A stretch of 64,000 nt of DNA, taken from the sequence record NC_004928.1; one strand, given 5' to 3'. The DNA is from Escherichia phage RB69. Both the position numbers and the translations under genes were made by a program. Each line of letters starts with the position of its first letter. Positions within the stretch are counted from its first letter, which is position 1. Positions 4,807 through 42,941 of this stretch are shown in pieces. Below the pieces are notes generated by a model. It saw only the letters and a program-made list of their open reading frames with translations. It was not told the origin of the DNA and did no database searches.

Positions 4807-6495
4807 TTATGAAACAGTCATTACAGTAAATCGTCCAACTTTGCTCATTTGAAGATGTTGTCCATAAGCTTGTGGGTCATGGTCTCTGTGACTAATTATA
4901 AACACGTTTGCATCGGTTAGAGAGTTAAGAATTGTTGAAATAGCTTTAATACCTTCAGAATCAGTCGCTGAATCCATGACTTCGTCCATAATTAATGTAT
5001 TGATTCTAACACCAGAGACCTTTTCGGCAATATCTCGCCATGTAAACAACAATGCGATATCGATACGTGCCTTTTCACCTTGACTAAATGAAGCATAACT
5101 AAACTCTTCACGGCCACGTGATTTTATAGATTCATTGAATTCTTCATCAATAGAAAACACGTAATCAGCTTCCATGATTTTAAGGTAATGGTTAATCTGC
5201 TTGTTGAACAGAGGCACATATTTTTTAATGATAGCACCTTTAATACCAGAATCTTTTAACATATCTGTGATAATACCACGATGGTATTTTTCAAGAACGA
5301 TATCCGATTTTGTTTTAATGATTTTATCAAGTTCTTTTTGAAGCAAAGCTATCTCATCGGCATGGTCGATAAATTCCGCCGAGGCTTGTTCTATTGCAGC
5401 TTTAACTTTCTTAGCTTTATCAATAGTGGCAATCATTGCTTGTTTCTTGGTACGAATATCAGATGCAAGGTCCTGTTTAGTCTTAACATTAGCTCTATAT
5501 TCGTCCACTAGGACACTCAGATTATCTCTGTGACAGGTAAGTTGCTCGAATGAGTGATTACATTCATGAAGCTTATCGGTAATCTTAGAGACAATAGGAT
5601 CACCCTGGTGCAACTGTGATGCACAAGTAGGACATGTACCACCATCATGATACATCTTAATAACTTTGTTATATGAGTCAATTTTAGATTTAATCAAGAA
5701 TGCTTCTTGTCCGATCTTGTTGAATGCCTCAGTAGGGTCTTCATCAAGAACGATATTAAGTAGTCGCTCATTAGCTTCTTCGATTTCTGCTTTTAATGAA
5801 CGAGCTTCTTTGGCTAGGTCGTCATACATATTCTGTAGACGCGCTACATTATCACCAGATAATTTCTTTTGACGTTCGATATTCTCATTATAAATCTTAA
5901 TTTGTTGGATAACACCATCTTTCTTGGCATCGAGAACTTGTCCCTGGGAATTAAGTTCTCGAACTTGAGACTTATTGATTTTATCCATTTCAGCGAGTGT
6001 GCCAACTTCTAAAAGGTCTTCGACAAGTTTTCTACGAGCAGGGGTGCTAAGAGCCATGAAAGGGGTATACCCTGCCGTCCCAAGCACAACGATTTGTTTA
6101 AAAGACGCGTATGACATTCCGATGCTACGTTCAAATTCTTCTTGGAAGTCACGACTGCTGGCAGATTCATCAAGACGAACACCGTCAACGGAGATTTCGA
6201 AAATATTGGGCTTTTGGCCACGTTTAATGAAGTATTTTTTATCATCGAATTCCATCCAAAGCTCAACTAAGAGCTCTTTCTTGTTCGTGCTATTAATGAT
6301 TTGTCCTTTCTTAACATCACGAAATGGTTTACCGAAAAGTCCGAAAGTAATGGCTTCTAACATCGTAGATTTACCACCGCCATTTTTACCAGTGATTAAT
6401 GTCTTTTGGACTTTATCTAATTGGATATCAATAGGATTCCCACCTACCGACATGATGTTTTGATAACGAACACGATTTAATTTAAATGATTTCAT
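4807..6495 (-). CDS. 46: recombination endonuclease subunit gp46 (Rad50/SbcC-like ATPase)
   Basis: 562 aa; Walker A GKNGGGKST; similarity to T4 gp46. Confidence 0.9.
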   Translation of the reverse strand: MKSFKLNRVRYQNIMSVGGNPIDIQLDKVQKTLITGKNGGGKSTMLEAITFGLFGKPFRDVKKGQIINSTNKKELLVELWMEFDDKKYFIKRGQKPNIFEISVDGVRLDESASSRDFQEEFERSIGMSYASFKQIVVLGTAGYTPFMALSTPARRKLVEDLLEVGTLAEMDKINKSQVRELNSQGQVLDAKKDGVIQQIKIYNENIERQKKLSGDNVARLQNMYDDLAKEARSLKAEIEEANERLLNIVLDEDPTEAFNKIGQEAFLIKSKIDSYNKVIKMYHDGGTCPTCASQLHQGDPIVSKITDKLHECNHSFEQLTCHRDNLSVLVDEYRANVKTKQDLASDIRTKKQAMIATIDKAKKVKAAIEQASAEFIDHADEIALLQKELDKIIKTKSDIVLEKYHRGIITDMLKDSGIKGAIIKKYVPLFNKQINHYLKIMEADYVFSIDEEFNESIKSRGREEFSYASFSQGEKARIDIALLFTWRDIAEKVSGVRINTLIMDEVMDSATDSEGIKAISTILNSLTDANVFIISHRDHDPQAYGQHLQMSKVGRFTVMTVS

Positions 6496-6740
6496 ATGTA
6501 TTCTCTTCGAATGAAGTCCTCTACATATTTTAACATGTCATCTCTATCAGCAAAATACTCGTCTAGTTCTGCATACATAACAACACCCGGTGCGTACTCA
6601 CAGGTAACATACATTGTTCCAAAGAAACGAGGAGTTGTCTCCTCGTAATTCTCAGTCCATTCAACGATACCAATATAACCGTCACCAATACTAAATTCAT
6701 GACGATGGATTTCATAATCAGTCTTCGTCATTATACGCAT
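6492..6740 (-). CDS. hypothetical protein
   Basis: 82-aa ORF between genes 47 and 46, overlapping stop/start with gene 46. Confidence 0.45.
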   Translation of the reverse strand: MRIMTKTDYEIHRHEFSIGDGYIGIVEWTENYEETTPRFFGTMYVTCEYAPGVVMYAELDEYFADRDDMLKYVEDFIRREYI

Positions 6741-6975
6741 CCTTGATACATGCTTCAGCCATTTTAAGAATAGAGCCAGGAGTATCGTTGTCCATTATAT
6801 TAAAGCTAAATTCAATAGCCCAGTCGGTGCAGACATGAACTGCTTTAACTTCATCGCCTTCAACGCGTAATGGCTCAATCCAATACTTGATAGTGTTCTC
6901 GAATCCATCATCATCTTTAACGTCCATTTCAACTTCAAGCCTGAGTCCAGCATTGTTAAATTCATCTAAAGTCAT
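6718..6975 (-). CDS. hypothetical protein
   Basis: 85-aa ORF between genes 47 and 46. Confidence 0.45.
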   Translation of the reverse strand: MTLDEFNNAGLRLEVEMDVKDDDGFENTIKYWIEPLRVEGDEVKAVHVCTDWAIEFSFNIMDNDTPGSILKMAEACIKDAYNDED

Positions 6976-7991
6976 TGTGTTGCCTCAATATAAAGTTCGT
7001 TGGAATATTTGACCAGCGCTTCTCTGTCTTCGTCTGAGATATCTGGAATCGCGTCAATATATTCTTTAATGATATCTTGAAGTGATTTAATCTCGATTTC
7101 CTGGTCGTCATCAGATTCAACACTGTTATCAACTTTAGAAACCATACGAAGAGAGTGAACTACTTTTTCAAGTTCAGATTCAAACTTAGTCAACTCTGAA
7201 TCAATTTCTGATACTATAACACGTACGGCTAGATTGGTATAATCAGAATAATTGATTTTGCCTTTAAACGGATAAGTGATTCGTCGATGCCATGTTGTTT
7301 CATTAGGAATAAATTCCATACGTTCAACATCAGTGTCAAATACCCAGAATCCGCGCGGGTCGTTCTCATCACCTGCAGTAAGAGTCCATGGTGTCCCAAT
7401 ATATTTGACGTTAGCAGCTTCAGAGATTGTGTGGAAGTGGCCGGACCAGACTTGTTTATAAGTCTTTAAGAAATCAGGTTCAAGCCCATGAGACTTCATC
7501 CCTTTATAGAAATAAAAGCCATTCAGTTCCCAATGACCAACACAATACGCGGCAGAAGAAGTCTTGATGTGCTCTAAGATTTCACCTGTATTTTCTTCAC
7601 ACATCCATGGAACGATATCAATCAGACATCCGTCAAAATCTACAGTAGTTGGATGCTCGTAAATAGTAAAGTTTTCAAATTGAGTTAACAATTCAGAAAC
7701 AGTGTTAGGTGTTATTGTATTCTTAAACGCCATGTCATGGTTTCCTATCGTGACATGAACGTGAATACCTGCTTTAGAAATCATATCAACGATTTCACGA
7801 TTGAATTCCATTGTACGATGTGTTATTGCTTTACGGACATCAAACCAATCGCCGTACTGAATCCAAGTTTTAATCCCGTGTTTCTTAGAGTATTCAATTG
7901 CTTGACGAATACCATCACGTTGAATATCTTGAACCCATGGGTCGTCTTGTTTGACTCCGATATGGAAGTCGCCTAAGTGCAAAATTTTCAT
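6972..7991 (-). CDS. 47: recombination endonuclease subunit gp47 (Mre11/SbcD-like phosphoesterase)
   Basis: 339 aa like T4 gp47; MKILHLGDFHIG calcineurin-like motif. Confidence 0.9.
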   Translation of the reverse strand: MKILHLGDFHIGVKQDDPWVQDIQRDGIRQAIEYSKKHGIKTWIQYGDWFDVRKAITHRTMEFNREIVDMISKAGIHVHVTIGNHDMAFKNTITPNTVSELLTQFENFTIYEHPTTVDFDGCLIDIVPWMCEENTGEILEHIKTSSAAYCVGHWELNGFYFYKGMKSHGLEPDFLKTYKQVWSGHFHTISEAANVKYIGTPWTLTAGDENDPRGFWVFDTDVERMEFIPNETTWHRRITYPFKGKINYSDYTNLAVRVIVSEIDSELTKFESELEKVVHSLRMVSKVDNSVESDDDQEIEIKSLQDIIKEYIDAIPDISDEDREALVKYSNELYIEATQ

Positions 7992-21997: not shown

Positions 21998-22948
21998 TTA
22001 TCCAGTTGAAATAAAATCTGCTACATAAAGAGCCGTACGTAATGATACATTGCGAAGACGAGATACGTTAGCCTTCATCCAGGACAATGCTTTGTACGTT
22101 TCTGCATCCGTCAGGCCACGTTTCTGCATCATGTCAGTAGATAATATTACATCTTCAACTCTGACCATAATCTCTTCATTAGAGTGTACTCCAAGGTCCA
22201 AATACACTGAACGAGATACTAAAGCTTGAAGGTGTGGAGCAAGTTTCGAACCGCGTTCTAACTCTTTATCGATATCAACGTTTGTAATGAAAACGATAGT
22301 ACCTTCAAACTCAAATTCTTTATCGATACCCTTATCATCAAGATAAGATGATGCAGTGCTCCAGCAAACTTTGCGTTTATCACCAGTATCTAATGCGGCT
22401 TTAAGAAGGTTCAAGATATCCATATCTGAGAATACGTCAACGTCGTCGATTAAGAGAACACTGTCTGCATCACGGTTGAGCCAAAGTTGTTCGTAAAGGC
22501 CAATACCAGAGATTTTGCCATTAATGCTTTTGTATTTGATGAAACCATTATCATTAGCATTATTAAGCGCTTTATCCAGAGAATACGTCTTACCAATACC
22601 TGCTGCACCTGAAATAATGAGTGAACGAATTTTGCCATCAATAATGCCATTCGTCATCATGTTCATTACTTTAAAGCGTTTGTTGATACGAGTTTTCATA
22701 TCTTCAGCGCTTTCAACAACTGCAACTGGTGATGTCTCAACTCCTTCCATTACGATGTCTGATTTGAAGACCCATACTCCACGTTCAGAACCATCAATCA
22801 TACCGAAAATTTTACCGTCACCTAAGTGGGAACATTCAGGATTAAGCTTTGCCGGGAACCATGTCTTTGTGGCAACATAAGAACCAGAGATTTCGTTATT
22901 ACGATAGATACCTTTTTTGATTTGAACGTTGAACATTTTATTCTCCAA
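21998..22948 (-). CDS. AAA-type P-loop ATPase
   Basis: Walker A GAAGIGKT, Walker B LLIDDVDVF, sensor-like FITN; 316 aa. Confidence 0.6.
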   Translation of the reverse strand: MENKMFNVQIKKGIYRNNEISGSYVATKTWFPAKLNPECSHLGDGKIFGMIDGSERGVWVFKSDIVMEGVETSPVAVVESAEDMKTRINKRFKVMNMMTNGIIDGKIRSLIISGAAGIGKTYSLDKALNNANDNGFIKYKSINGKISGIGLYEQLWLNRDADSVLLIDDVDVFSDMDILNLLKAALDTGDKRKVCWSTASSYLDDKGIDKEFEFEGTIVFITNVDIDKELERGSKLAPHLQALVSRSVYLDLGVHSNEEIMVRVEDVILSTDMMQKRGLTDAETYKALSWMKANVSRLRNVSLRTALYVADFISTG

Positions 22949-23006: not shown

Positions 23007-23225
23007 TTATTTGCGACGAGATTTTTTGGTAAGAGGTTGAAAGAACACTGCTTTACCAGCAGGAGTCAAAGTGACTCGTAATGCATTACCGATTCCCAAG
23101 GATGCTTTAACCAGACCTTTAGATTTCAGTTCACCGAATGCTTGACGTTGGTCTGCATCACGAGTGTTAACCATAAGACCTTTATCACCAGCTTCACGAA
23201 TCATTTCTAACATTTTGGTTTTCAT
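23007..23225 (-). CDS. hypothetical protein
   Basis: Track ORF 23007..23282 trimmed to MKTKMLEMI with SD AAGAGGAG. Confidence 0.45.
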   Translation of the reverse strand: MKTKMLEMIREAGDKGLMVNTRDADQRQAFGELKSKGLVKASLGIGNALRVTLTPAGKAVFFQPLTKKSRRK

Positions 23226-23244
23226 TTTGTTCTCCTCTTGTTTT

Positions 23245-23282
23245 GATAGGTCTATAATAACATATCCTAAAAGCATGTACAC
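23245..23282 (-). promoter_or_regulatory. early promoter cassette (GATAGGTCTATAATAACAT)
   Basis: shares the GATAGGTCTATAAT core with 22967..23005 and 21632..21670. Confidence 0.45.
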
Positions 23283-23290
23283 TACTTTTT

Positions 23291-23327
23291 AAAAATATTT
23301 TGACCCCCTAAAGGGCCCGAAGGCCCT
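23291..23327 (-). terminator. putative terminator hairpin (GGGCC-UUCG-GGCCC)
   Basis: GC stem with tetraloop directly downstream of ORF 23330..24319; weak U-tract. Confidence 0.4.
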
Positions 23328-23329
23328 TA

Positions 23330-24319
23330 TCATTTATAGTACGAATTGTGGTTTTCTAAGTAGACTTGTTCAAGGAAGTCGTCCCAGAAACTCATATCTA
23401 CTTTTTGCTGCATACCGTTCTTAGCAGCTTGTTCTGCCGCATGTTCAACTTGGTCAACGATATCTTCTAAGAATTCCTGTACGGTTTTAAACGTATGTTT
23501 ACCAAGCTTAACATCGAGAATAAATGGAGCATCCTGAAGCGGGTAAACCAGGTCGCCGGTTTTGTAAATTTCTAAGAGCTGAAGTCCACCACGGCATGCA
23601 TGACTCAATGCTTTCCAGTCAATACCTTCGTTAGCTTCTGCCTTACGAGCACGTTCACCATAGTTCTCTTCCAGTTTAACCAGGATGGCATTGAACTCTT
23701 TATTGGTTAACGTATCTTGGAATTTACGGTCTAACAGATTATAGAATGTTTGCTTACCTGTTTTCTCGTTTTCAGTTTCAACCCACGAAGCAAATTCACC
23801 TACAGGCAGAACATTCTTCATATGTGATAAACGAATTACTGCACCATTATCAAAGTATTGTCCCCATTCATTAGAACGTTTAAGGGCTTGACGAAGAACA
23901 GCCAGTCGAGAACCCTTGACACCGTATTTAGAAGCTTGCTTACGGACATACCCTAAATAAGATTTCATGTTAGTGGTATAGAAACGAGACCTGTTATCTT
24001 GAATATACTTCCATACATCAGGCAAATCAGATTTAACTACTAGACTTTGTGGAGTGTGAAGCATATCTAATGCGACGGTTTCACCATCTGCAGCTAGTTT
24101 AAAGAAATATTTGAGACTATACAGCTCATGGTCCACGTCGTCTTTTGTGTTCTTAGAAGCAGTGTTATTCGTGTTCTTGCTCATGTGTTCTTTAACGTTA
24201 CCGGTCAAGATATCACGAGCATGAGGGACATAAATTTCTTTAAAATCAACGTCAGATTCAGGAGTAGACGTTCCATAAAGGTGGCTACCAAAGTAGCCTT
24301 TCATAATTGTTTTCATCAT
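23330..24319 (-). CDS. Pol-beta-superfamily nucleotidyltransferase-like protein
   Basis: N-terminal hG[GS]x(8-10)[DE]h[DE]h signature (YFGSHLYGTSTPESDVDF) followed by about 290 aa largely helical; function unassigned. Confidence 0.5.
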   Translation of the reverse strand: MMKTIMKGYFGSHLYGTSTPESDVDFKEIYVPHARDILTGNVKEHMSKNTNNTASKNTKDDVDHELYSLKYFFKLAADGETVALDMLHTPQSLVVKSDLPDVWKYIQDNRSRFYTTNMKSYLGYVRKQASKYGVKGSRLAVLRQALKRSNEWGQYFDNGAVIRLSHMKNVLPVGEFASWVETENEKTGKQTFYNLLDRKFQDTLTNKEFNAILVKLEENYGERARKAEANEGIDWKALSHACRGGLQLLEIYKTGDLVYPLQDAPFILDVKLGKHTFKTVQEFLEDIVDQVEHAAEQAAKNGMQQKVDMSFWDDFLEQVYLENHNSYYK

Positions 24320-24789
24320 TTAGCCTTATATTCAAGAGTAGGACAGACTTTTTCTTTACGAGCTTTAAGGTATTCACCTATTAATGATTTCTTACGTTCA
24401 ATAGGCTCAAGTCCATTTTTAATTCGTTCTTGGTTTTGTGCAATGAGCTCAATTTCTTTATAATATTTTCTGTCGTTATATTTGTCTAACAACCAAGACG
24501 GACCAATTACCAACCCGGTAGAAATAAAAGCCATGACTGCTACAATTAAAACGCCTACACCAATTGAGGCTGGAACTAATGTCCATAGACTGCTAAAAAC
24601 AAAGAATTTAGTTAAAATTTCATGGCCAATGATTGTGACTGCTGCTAAAATCGCAAATCCAATAATCGAAACAGCCAATACCGGGAGAAATGTTTTCCAA
24701 AAATAAGAACACAACGTTTTCGGGCGATTCCATGTACTATTGAATGCGGCATAAATTTTATAGTGCCAAGAGTTTTCATTGATAATCAT
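24316..24789 (-). CDS. membrane protein with two hydrophobic helices
   Basis: 157 aa; two about 22-residue hydrophobic segments then charged tail; ATGA overlap with downstream nucleotidyltransferase gene. Confidence 0.55.
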   Translation of the reverse strand: MIINENSWHYKIYAAFNSTWNRPKTLCSYFWKTFLPVLAVSIIGFAILAAVTIIGHEILTKFFVFSSLWTLVPASIGVGVLIVAVMAFISTGLVIGPSWLLDKYNDRKYYKEIELIAQNQERIKNGLEPIERKKSLIGEYLKARKEKVCPTLEYKAK

Positions 24790-24798
24790 AATAATTCC

Positions 24799-25341
24799 TT
24801 ATTTCAAAGTCGGGATAATAGAATCAAGATAAGCTTTAAGAGCAACTGCTTCATCTTTGTCTAATGTAATGATATGTTGACGAAGGTCATCAATTTGGCG
24901 AATAACTACGACATCACCGTCTTCATAAGAAGGATTAACGCCTAAGACTGTTGTATAGTCAGGGCGGTCCTGATTTGTAATAAAAGCATTACGGCATTTA
25001 GCCCATTGAAGTTTGGCTTTTTTGACTGTTTCAGATTCCATGAATTCTTTCACCTTAGTGACGAATGTTTTCCAATTATTAATAGAAAAACATTCGTCTT
25101 CAGTTTCGATATTAACCCCACTATAAAGTCCGTGATAAAAACGAACTTGAAGGTCTTCGTCAATGTTAATTACAGATGCATGGCCTGGTGGATTGAGTTT
25201 CAAAATCTTGTCCAGTTCCATAGGAAGAATAGTAACAGCATCATCTTCTTGTGTCAGAACGTAAGCATAACCACGTTTTTCGATACATAAATCGCCAAAC
25301 AACTCGGTTGTTTCAATTACAGTTTTCATATTATTCACCAA
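24799..25341 (-). CDS. hypothetical protein
   Basis: 180-aa ORF, first gene of the three-gene module. Confidence 0.5.
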   Translation of the reverse strand: MVNNMKTVIETTELFGDLCIEKRGYAYVLTQEDDAVTILPMELDKILKLNPPGHASVINIDEDLQVRFYHGLYSGVNIETEDECFSINNWKTFVTKVKEFMESETVKKAKLQWAKCRNAFITNQDRPDYTTVLGVNPSYEDGDVVVIRQIDDLRQHIITLDKDEAVALKAYLDSIIPTLK

Positions 25342-25636
25342 TTAAAGTTTCAACAAAATTCACCAAATCATTCAGACAAGCATCAACCTGATTTTCATAA
25401 AAGTCTTCGTTATCATTTACTGCATGATAAGCTACATCATTCAAATCTGATTCGGCCTCACGTAAGTGAGGGATAAGTTCCATCAATTTATTAGCTTGTT
25501 CACGGGTCATTTTACCATACTCGCTTCAATAAGATTAATTACACCATTTACCATGTTATACGTAAACATCGGATAATTGTATTGTACTATAACATAAGCG
25601 ATAAGCAAAAGTTTCATTTTGTTCTCCATTTGTTTT

Positions 25637-25676
25637 GATAGGACTACTATAACATAGTCCTACCAAGATGTAAACT
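25637..25676 (-). promoter_or_regulatory. early promoter cassette, canonical copy (GTTTACA-n6-TAGGACTA-tgttatag-TAGTCCTA)
   Basis: 8-bp perfect inverted repeat flanking the -10 region; GTTTACA -35. Confidence 0.5.
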
Positions 25677-42782: not shown

Positions 42783-42861
42783 TGGTCGAGACAGAAGGAT
42801 TCTAACCTTCAACCTACGGATTAGAAGTCCCCGTTGCTCTATACAATTGAGCTATGCCTCG
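42783..42861 (-). tRNA. tRNA-like gene, Arg(UCU)-like anticodon context with non-canonical loop
   Basis: 7-bp acceptor stem, D-stem GCUC/GAGC, T-arm GAAGG-UUAGAAU-CCUUC, encoded CCA; anticodon arm only folds with a 9-nt loop. Confidence 0.4.
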
Positions 42862-42867
42862 AATATA

Positions 42868-42941
42868 TGACCCAGACCAGATTCGAACTGGTAACCTTTC
42901 CCTTATGAGGGGACTGCTGCTAACCGTTGAGCTACAGGGCC
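42868..42941 (-). tRNA. tRNA-like gene, CAU anticodon context (Met/Ile), imperfect D-arm
   Basis: T-arm ACCAG-UUCGAAU-CUGGU, acceptor stem with one U-U mismatch, loop CUCAUAA. Confidence 0.35.

Follow-up and report, generated by a model that had tools for sequence, protein, structure and literature searches.

The Mosigvirus version of the phage T4 nrdC.11 locus in Escherichia phage RB69: an RlaP-family nucleotidyltransferase gene preceded by a membrane-protein gene that recurs beside phage RNA-repair genes

Repair of transfer RNA (tRNA) in phage T4 is carried out by Pnkp and Rnl1, which counter the PrrC anticodon nuclease, and RloC is known as a "repair-defying", wobble-excising nuclease. The wobble-excising activity of RloC has been documented (PMC2610378, PMC3458546), and nucleotidyltransferases (NTases) of the RlaP family have been predicted to restore the RloC-excised nucleotides before ligation takes place (PMC7824862). 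According to a preprint of December 2025, two Pseudomonas members of this family, PfRlaP and PaRlaP, add one or two nucleoside monophosphates (NMPs) to the 3'-OH of RNA, prefer a broken-tRNA mimic and Mn2+, and are inactive on DNA and protein; their fold consists of an NTase domain and a helical domain with three conserved Asp residues, the final helix packs back on the NTase domain in the PfRlaP crystal structure, and T4 NrdC.11 is a member of the family, falling within cluster 5 of the sequence similarity network (SSN) of PF10127 (PMC12776372). The nrdC.11-mobD.3 block can be deleted from T4 (PMC9825161), which fits a conditional, anti-defence role for NrdC.11. The subject of the present analysis is a locus at positions 23,291 to 25,676 of a 64,000-nucleotide stretch of Escherichia phage RB69 (NC_004928.1; the whole stretch is referred to as the window below), in which the orthologue of nrdC.11, as judged by sequence, directly follows a gene for a small two-helix membrane protein of the family phrog_944.

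What the locus represents is a known locus of phage T4 in its Mosigvirus form, and not a signalling module resembling the cyclic oligonucleotide-based antiphage signalling system (CBASS), as had originally been proposed on the grounds of an NTase being paired with a small membrane protein. The RB69 region is 95-96% identical to Mosigvirus genomes, Mosigvirus being a genus of T4-like phages that infect E. coli and Shigella. While the NTase itself is ordinary, the recurrent place of the membrane protein beside RlaP or RNA ligases is a modest, testable novelty. The two genes in question are:

24316..24789, minus strand: 157-amino-acid two-transmembrane (two-TM) protein, phrog_944 (hydropathy, family alignment, AlphaFold2 (AF2) model)
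23330..24319, minus strand: 329-amino-acid RlaP-family NTase of the polymerase beta (Pol-beta) type, T4 NrdC.11 orthologue (Pfam PF10127, tblastn)

Membership of the NTase in the RlaP family, as the orthologue of T4 NrdC.11, is well supported by sequence comparison. PF10127 (RlaP) is its sole Pfam match (48.9 bits, with the curated cutoff at 23; E 9e-13), the same domain is precomputed on all of its close homologues, phrog_388 ("nucleotidyltransferase") is matched at E 3e-126, and the protein is 77% identical to NrdC.11 (NP_049709) over 329 amino acids, with the synteny conserved. The T4 gene order is mobD.2, mobD.1, mobD, nrdC.11, nrdC.10, and tblastn against T4 pairs the RB69 proteins with NrdC.11 (77% identity), MobD.1 (46%), MobD.2 (65%) and NrdC.10 (77%), the RB69 NTase gene holding the same position as its T4 counterpart, i.e., downstream of MobD.1 and upstream of the NrdC.10 AAA ATPase. 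The statement of the original prediction that T4 has no obvious counterpart is thus wrong for four of the five genes of the unit, and the NTase, which is found in 1572 phage records as a family, turns out to be conserved across T4-type phages, which goes against the original reading by that reading's own standard. Of the representatives of 50%-identity clusters, 3225 match it at E<=1e-3, the best 150 listed being mostly near full-length. There are differences from T4 nonetheless: the RB69 protein is 329 amino acids long versus 336 in T4, and its gene is coupled to the membrane-protein gene, whereas T4 has mobD, encoding an HNH homing endonuclease, in the slot between mobD.1 and nrdC.11. In many Tequatrovirus relatives of T4 (e.g., HY01) it is the membrane gene that occupies the mobD slot, abutting the NTase gene; within the T4 stretch of 44-62 kb, the 157-amino-acid membrane gene has no match, being the only module gene so reported.

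Across 85 homologues (34-52% identity), residues G11, S12, S22, D23, D25, N57, D63, Y132, K236, R243, K271 and G273 do not vary. The N-terminal domain carries the signature G11 S12 ... D23 x D25 ... D63, so that the textbook NTase motif reported at the outset is indeed present, although with a spacing of GS-x10-DVD rather than x9, and the helical domain at the C-terminus contributes K236, H240, R243 and K271. The AF2 model is a confident one, its predicted local distance difference test (pLDDT) score being 93.9; the NTase core in it is alpha/beta, the C-terminal half is helical and ends in a long helix (309-328), and D23/D25 stand at the opening of strand 24-31. Structure prediction had been suggested as the way to locate the third catalytic acid, and the model points to D63, which opens strand 62-68 and is invariant, as the candidate for that role. 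The GS...DxD...D signature is shared with the characterised RlaP enzymes, and the combination of NTase and helical domains predicted by the model resembles theirs; unlike PfRlaP and PaRlaP, however, the RB69 NTase falls within another SSN cluster and is not part of an RtcB/RtcA or RNA-ligase operon.

By analogy with these enzymes, the RB69 NTase would be a template-independent one, extending the 3'-OH of broken RNA, mainly of fragments from the anticodon loop of tRNA, by one or two NMPs; such an addition would restore nucleotides lost to host ribotoxins such as the wobble-excising RloC, and the restored ends would let phage healing and sealing enzymes (Pnkp and Rnl1/Rnl2 in T4) rebuild a functional tRNA. 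It is by the same analogy that we infer both the activity of the RB69/NrdC.11 subfamily and its in vivo target. The job so proposed is the same countermeasure as T4 tRNA repair, namely the mending of host-cut tRNA so that translation continues, with RlaP supplying the nucleotide that RloC has removed (PMC7824862). It differs from the T4 system in that the RB69 locus is without end-healing and sealing genes and in that the link of NrdC.11 to PrrC or RloC is a prediction. As for the earlier suggestion of a nucleotide- or protein-modifying enzyme, what would be retained is a nucleotide-transferring enzyme that, judging by its family, acts on nucleic acid, i.e., on RNA 3' ends, and what is dropped is the signalling.

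The membrane protein is the less expected part of the locus. Its stop codon and the start codon of the NTase gene overlap as ATGA (24316-24319), just as had been noticed before, and its two-helix nature holds as well, the helices being placed at about 33-55 and 68-100 by hydropathy and at 26-62 and 72-124 in the AF2 model. Conservation within phrog_944 is found at the ends (N-terminal NSWHY...PKTLCxYFW and C-terminal YLKARKEKVCPxIEY), and the two helices between them vary; in the family alignment W8, C27, Y29, K147 and C149 are invariant, with His9 nearly so. In the AF2 model (pLDDT 77), strands 2-4 and 153-155 are paired, and the N- and C-terminal motifs are both predicted to face the cytoplasm and to fold together, the functional unit being probably a small, membrane-tethered cytoplasmic module. 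Searches of Pfam, NCBIfam, PADLOC and PDB returned no match for this protein (PDB best E 4.5). Its homologues occur in 1264 phage records, spanning coliphages and Klebsiella, Acinetobacter, Aeromonas, Pseudomonas and Vibrio phages; among 185,579 cellular species genomes there are 4 loci, all on contigs of metagenome-assembled genomes (MAGs) and none with RlaP or a ligase nearby. The family is almost phage-restricted.

Neighbourhoods of the membrane gene were surveyed in 80 IMG/VR loci selected by its presence, which make up 51 clusters at 60% identity. RlaP lies within 4 kb in 30 of these 80 loci and, in 29 of the 30, it is 0-1.2 kb downstream on the same strand; the membrane gene stands upstream of RlaP across Mosigvirus, Tequatrovirus, Jiaodavirus and Acinetobacter phages. 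RNA ligases are the other recurrent companions. In the Aeromonas Tulanevirus Aes012, RlaP is found at 43 kb, but the membrane gene, at 132 kb, immediately precedes the gene for a DraRnl-type RNA ligase, and related Aeromonas loci show the same membrane gene-ligase arrangement. In the Pseudomonas Pakpunavirus YS35, which is not T4-like, the membrane gene has a Metallophos phosphoesterase on one side and an Rnl1-type ligase on the other, with an AAA_33 kinase-like protein coming after the ligase, and the presence of a phosphoesterase, a ligase and a kinase-like gene together makes this neighbourhood an end-healing and sealing cassette. Two further loci (L084 and L085) have RNA ligases about 1.1-1.3 kb from the membrane gene. 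In the reverse sample of 80 ligase-selected loci (0.66 Mb), the membrane gene was found in five, each time immediately upstream and on the same strand, including two metagenomic phage lineages (L110 and L146) that carry the phrog_944 motifs. About 0.36 membrane genes would be expected in this sample from the density of about 0.55 per Mb in the phage collection (Poisson P ~4e-5, or 6e-3 with the three Aeromonas loci counted once, both being rough estimates).

The association of phrog_944 with RNA-repair enzymes is judged to be real. A role in RNA repair is suggested by the gene recurring right before RlaP or an RNA ligase in phage lineages that are separate, and the two-TM protein would then work with these enzymes, its likeliest function being that of an adaptor or regulator bound to the membrane. 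Whether it is their working partner is a question on which our opinion is evenly balanced. That phrog_944 is a hitherto unrecognised membrane component of phage RNA repair, partnering RlaP or RNA ligases via its conserved cytoplasmic N/C module, is put forward more tentatively, as a possibility that we find attractive but would not yet favour; neither the RlaP preprint nor the jumbo-phage review, in its section on RNA repair, mentions such a component. The earlier idea that the NTase and the membrane protein belong together thus survives in part, inasmuch as the membrane family does stand upstream of RlaP or RNA ligases, with the link being RNA repair and not second-messenger signalling.

A number of observations weigh against this explanation. 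On the side of the NTase, the Pfam PF10127 alignment covers residues 7-138 only, RlaP activity is known from one preprint and two Pseudomonas enzymes in an SSN cluster other than that of NrdC.11, no RNA ligase or Pnkp gene is found near the RB69 locus and no ligase beside the T4 gene either, and three sampled loci of the NTase subfamily are likewise without an adjacent ligase (one of them has a CCA-adding enzyme nearby); RNA-ligase adjacency is a tendency of the RlaP family and not a requirement for each of its members. Lack of an adjacent RNA ligase, together with a position among nucleotide-metabolism genes (tk, nrdC) and the frequent "thioredoxin / Phage DNA synthesis" labels, might be taken to mean that the substrate is something other than broken RNA, be it a small molecule (ANT-type adenylylation), a protein (AMPylation), DNA, or modified-nucleotide metabolism with the tk/nrd neighbours. 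The structural matches are weak, however (E ~2e-3, TM-score ~0.3, 8-10% identity), the protein belongs to PF10127 by sequence, the tested members labelled RNA and not E. coli protein or DNA, and homologues of the co-transcribed membrane gene track RNA ligases, all of which leaves a non-RNA substrate very improbable. Another thought, close to the one first put forward, is that the pair might be a phage-borne Hailong-like or CBASS-like module, in which the NTase product (an oligonucleotide or a cyclic nucleotide) gates or activates the membrane protein, as the order of a TM protein followed by an NTase, with translational coupling, recalls the two-gene Hailong system of the TM protein HalA and the nucleotidyltransferase HalB (PMC13434031). 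There is, however, no detectable sequence similarity between the two: the profile of 86 NTase homologues finds neither HalB nor any other NTase in PDB at E<=1, the NTase has no match in PADLOC (E<=0.1) or NCBIfam, and the membrane model, a 157-amino-acid hairpin and not a channel with a cytoplasmic crown, matches nothing in PDB, HalA included. The RB69 module is also phage-encoded, its pair is not obligate (the T4 NTase does without the membrane gene, and 50 of the 80 membrane-selected loci have no NTase within 4 kb), and the characterised RlaP enzymes add only one or two nucleotides to existing RNA ends and are inactive on DNA, whereas Hailong carries out protein-primed poly-dA synthesis. With PF10127 being the only Pfam domain of the NTase, and with no CD-NTase, SMODS, SAVED or other CBASS domain in Pfam or PADLOC, a signalling pair of this kind is considered extremely improbable, and a CBASS/CD-NTase identity proper, having no Pfam, PADLOC or fold support, is rejected outright.

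Other observations concern the membrane protein. RlaP or an RNA ligase is nearby in only 17 of the 51 sampled membrane-gene clusters, the other contexts being heterogeneous (adenylosuccinate synthetase, GmrSD_N, DUF2800/PDDEXK, ERCC4, or no recognisable gene), the adjacency inside T4-like phages could be inherited synteny, and we know of no mechanism by which a membrane protein would serve RNA repair. The membrane gene is also dispensable for NTase retention, as T4 has substituted mobD for it and keeps the NTase. It is conceivable, then, that the NTase is an RlaP repair enzyme and the membrane protein the product of an accessory gene without connection to it (serving, e.g., superinfection exclusion, the timing of lysis or some other membrane-directed host takeover) in a permissive slot, the adjacency being due to inherited synteny and chance. 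Apart from the homing endonuclease filling that slot in T4, this would suit the one to three small genes that separate the pair in Jiaodavirus, Acinetobacter and Klebsiella phages, the 50 of 80 membrane-selected loci without RlaP within 4 kb (many of the neighbourhoods being without a recognisable RNA-repair gene), the filing of phrog_944 by PHROGs under "moron, auxiliary metabolic gene and host takeover", and a hyperplastic region with shuffled genes, bounded by promoter-early stem-loop (PeSL) cassettes (PMC2839356, PMC4122927). It sits poorly, however, with the relocated gene being found again immediately upstream of an RNA-repair enzyme, on the same strand and with a gap of no more than about 110 nucleotides, in at least four lineages (Aeromonas T4-likes, Pakpunavirus, L110 and L146), with the enrichment at ligase loci far over the background density, and with the pair overlapping by 4 nucleotides in the RB69 window or abutting in Tequatrovirus HY01. 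An unrelated accessory gene is hence regarded as unlikely, albeit as an explanation deserving to be kept in mind next to the RNA-repair partnership.

Several other features of the surveyed loci may be recorded here. Large VWA-domain proteins recur beside genes of the membrane family (L110, 1360-3462; L073, 4906-6945; L081, 2603-3748 and 4529-5962), and one of them carries DUF2828/DUF7788, which may be TROVE/Ro-like; the recurrence may be a further association related to RNA repair. A GmrSD_N (DUF262) protein of 170-175 amino acids, encoded upstream of the membrane gene with a 4-nucleotide overlap, and adenylosuccinate-synthetase-like genes are recurrent upstream neighbours as well (L003 and L005, 4477-5004; L076, 2904-4004; L060, 2538-3689). 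In L003 and L005, the 305/292-amino-acid protein encoded after the distant homologue of the membrane protein was considered as a possible divergent RlaP and proved not to be one. In L072 (4001-6250), the membrane gene is reduced to its first ~33 matching residues, there is no RlaP within 4 kb, and a 255-amino-acid open reading frame (ORF) without a Pfam match stands between the membrane-gene remnant and the NrdC.10-type ATPase, which looks like a joint replacement of the membrane gene and RlaP. The metagenomic phage L100 has its RlaP homologue at 5974-6978, followed by an AcrVA2-like protein, and a CCA-adding enzyme (PolyA_pol + HD) about 5 kb away (10703 onward).

Returning to RB69, the NTase and membrane-protein genes are the last two in a minus-strand unit of five ORFs between a promoter and a hairpin, with thymidine kinase and rI upstream. 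The remaining features of the unit, and those of the next one, are as follows:

25612..25676, minus strand: upstream promoter cassette (promoter scan, repeat search, relatives)
25507..25617, minus strand: 36-amino-acid ORF, T4 MobD.2 homologue (tblastn, PHROG match)
25331..25510, minus strand: 59-amino-acid DUF7438 protein (Pfam PF24219)
24799..25329, minus strand: 176-amino-acid homologue of T4 MobD.1 (y05I) (Pfam, tblastn)
23311..23328, minus strand: C(UUCG)G tetraloop hairpin (fold energy, relatives)
23220..23285, minus strand: second promoter/untranslated region (UTR)/ATGAAA cassette (repeat comparison)
23007..23225, minus strand: 72-amino-acid ORF (phrog_6001), first gene of the next unit
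21998..22948, minus strand: NrdC.10-like AAA/STAND-type ATPase, next unit (tblastn, 77% to T4 NrdC.10)

To call this a promoter-to-terminator module, as was done initially, is a fair description. The three co-oriented minus-strand ORFs then listed are all present, but the unit holds five, the genes of the 36-amino-acid MobD.2 homologue and of the 59-amino-acid DUF7438 protein having been missed; furthermore, the ORF given as 24799..25341 is real, its start, however, being most likely the ATG at 25329 (yielding 176 amino acids), as in the annotation of a RefSeq relative, and not the TTG at 25341. The promoter and the terminator hairpin both call for qualification, as set out next.

The upstream promoter consists of a -35 TTTACA (25674-25669), a 17-nucleotide spacer with TG, and a -10 TATAGT (25651-25646), and is of the sigma-70/T4-early type. 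An inverted repeat, TAGGACTA/TAGTCCTA, spans the -10, and then come a 5' UTR, which contains the Shine-Dalgarno sequence GGAG, and ATGAAA. A generic promoter scan of the region found 12 promoters versus 11.4 expected, i.e., chance level; the promoter is nevertheless credible, as the whole cassette is duplicated and conserved in relatives. Positions 25612-25676 are 81% identical to 23220-23285, over a stretch that reaches from the -35 to ATGAAA and takes in the 5' UTR, the two copies being direct repeats that bracket the 2.4-kb module; the exact 5' UTR repeat occurs twice in the 64 kb with none expected, and the upstream cassette is kept in the Mosigvirus relatives L002, L017 and L018. The promoter of the downstream copy, TGTACA-16-TATTAT, comes after the hairpin and opens the next unit. 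The hairpin itself, AAGGGCC-UUCG-GGCCCUU, starts 2 nucleotides past the NTase stop codon, so that the hairpin first reported is in place; it is of the C(UUCG)G kind, with a dG of -13.4 kcal/mol (z -1.39 versus shuffled sequences). Its U tail is made up of three U only, so that it is not a canonical intrinsic terminator, and it is probably a terminator or an RNA-stabilising element, the stem-loop part of a PeSL. It is conserved in L002 and L018, and the L017 version has compensatory changes (GGGACC...GGTCCC).

PeSL cassettes, consisting of a stem-loop and an early promoter, are mobile regulatory cassettes that bound shuffled modules in the hyperplastic regions of T4-type phages (PMC2839356, PMC4122927). 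The RB69 module shares with them a downstream boundary at which an early promoter comes after a GC hairpin, a promoter cassette repeated at both ends, and gene content that differs at the cassette in L017, and its upstream promoter has a one-base mismatch to the T4/PST PeSL consensus TTTACW-N17-TAYWAT (PMC4122927). It differs from them in that the upstream copy is without a GC stem-loop of its own, the stop codon of the preceding gene abutting the -35, and in that the repeat continues through the 5' UTR as far as the start codon. L017, a close Mosigvirus relative, is a direct case of such shuffling: it has an extra 88-amino-acid signal-peptide ORF (MKKLVIGLFAVMMAFSVGA..., 5492-5758) between the NTase stop codon and the hairpin and is without the 72-amino-acid ORF, the same cassette directly driving its NrdC.10 homologue. 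Several GenBank relatives (H1, H5 and H6) show a match longer by ~317 nucleotides at the region of the L017 insertion (cf. window positions 23286-23330). Duplicated PeSL-like cassettes could allow module excision or exchange by recombination, and a promoter-to-terminator module of this sort is a known kind of T4-type genome architecture. Taken jointly with the rest of the explanation preferred here, and with a degree of confidence that applies to that explanation as a whole, it is fairly probable that the module is one early transcription unit of the tk-nrdC hyperplastic region, bounded by two PeSL-type promoter cassettes.

The 36-amino-acid ORF, which is hydrophobic and is left unannotated in the RefSeq relative NC_031090, is 65% identical to T4 mobD.2 over 34 amino acids by tblastn and matches phrog_3515 at E 6e-20; its stop codon overlaps the start of the 59-amino-acid ORF as ATGA. 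The product of the latter (PF24219, DUF7438, E 9e-14) is a paralogue of T4 Tk.1-type small proteins and is named "helicase loader" in some RefSeq records via phrog_4859, a name that nothing in the present analysis supports. The 176-amino-acid protein matches Pfam T4_y05I_N (E 2e-41) and T4_y05I_C (E 1.5e-19), is 46% identical to T4 MobD.1, and is a putative transcription factor as per Pfam. As the MobD.1 homologue is missing from the equivalent Jiaodavirus and Acinetobacter phage loci, its partnership with the NTase is not a constant one, and all three (MobD.1, MobD.2 and the DUF7438 protein) would be co-transcribed passengers with no constant link to it. Beyond the unit, the 72-amino-acid ORF has no match in the T4 stretch of 44-62 kb, and the NrdC.10-type AAA ATPase is found downstream also in T4, HY01 and the IMG/VR loci L065 and L072. 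Rfam and NCBIfam scans of the region gave no match. Elsewhere in the window, genes for tRNA-Arg(TCT) and tRNA-Met(CAT) are present at 42783-42941 on the minus strand, which is of relevance to the theme of tRNA-targeting defence.

As far as the NTase is concerned, little changes, it being another T4 NrdC.11 orthologue in a family with newly described chemistry, and the practical gain lies chiefly in correcting the widespread mislabelling of RlaP NTases, which in GenBank/RefSeq relatives are often presented as "thioredoxin" or "Phage DNA synthesis". The part worth pursuing is the membrane protein, which is widespread, almost phage-restricted and placed directly upstream of two kinds of RNA-repair enzymes in unrelated phages, and for which the T4-like phages offer a natural comparison, the gene being lacking in T4 and present in HY01 and Mosigvirus. 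If the link is functional, a membrane-bound player would be added to the phage answer to tRNA-cleaving defences: the repair of ribotoxin-cut tRNA would be organised or switched at the inner membrane, or phrog_944 would neutralise a membrane-linked ribotoxin.

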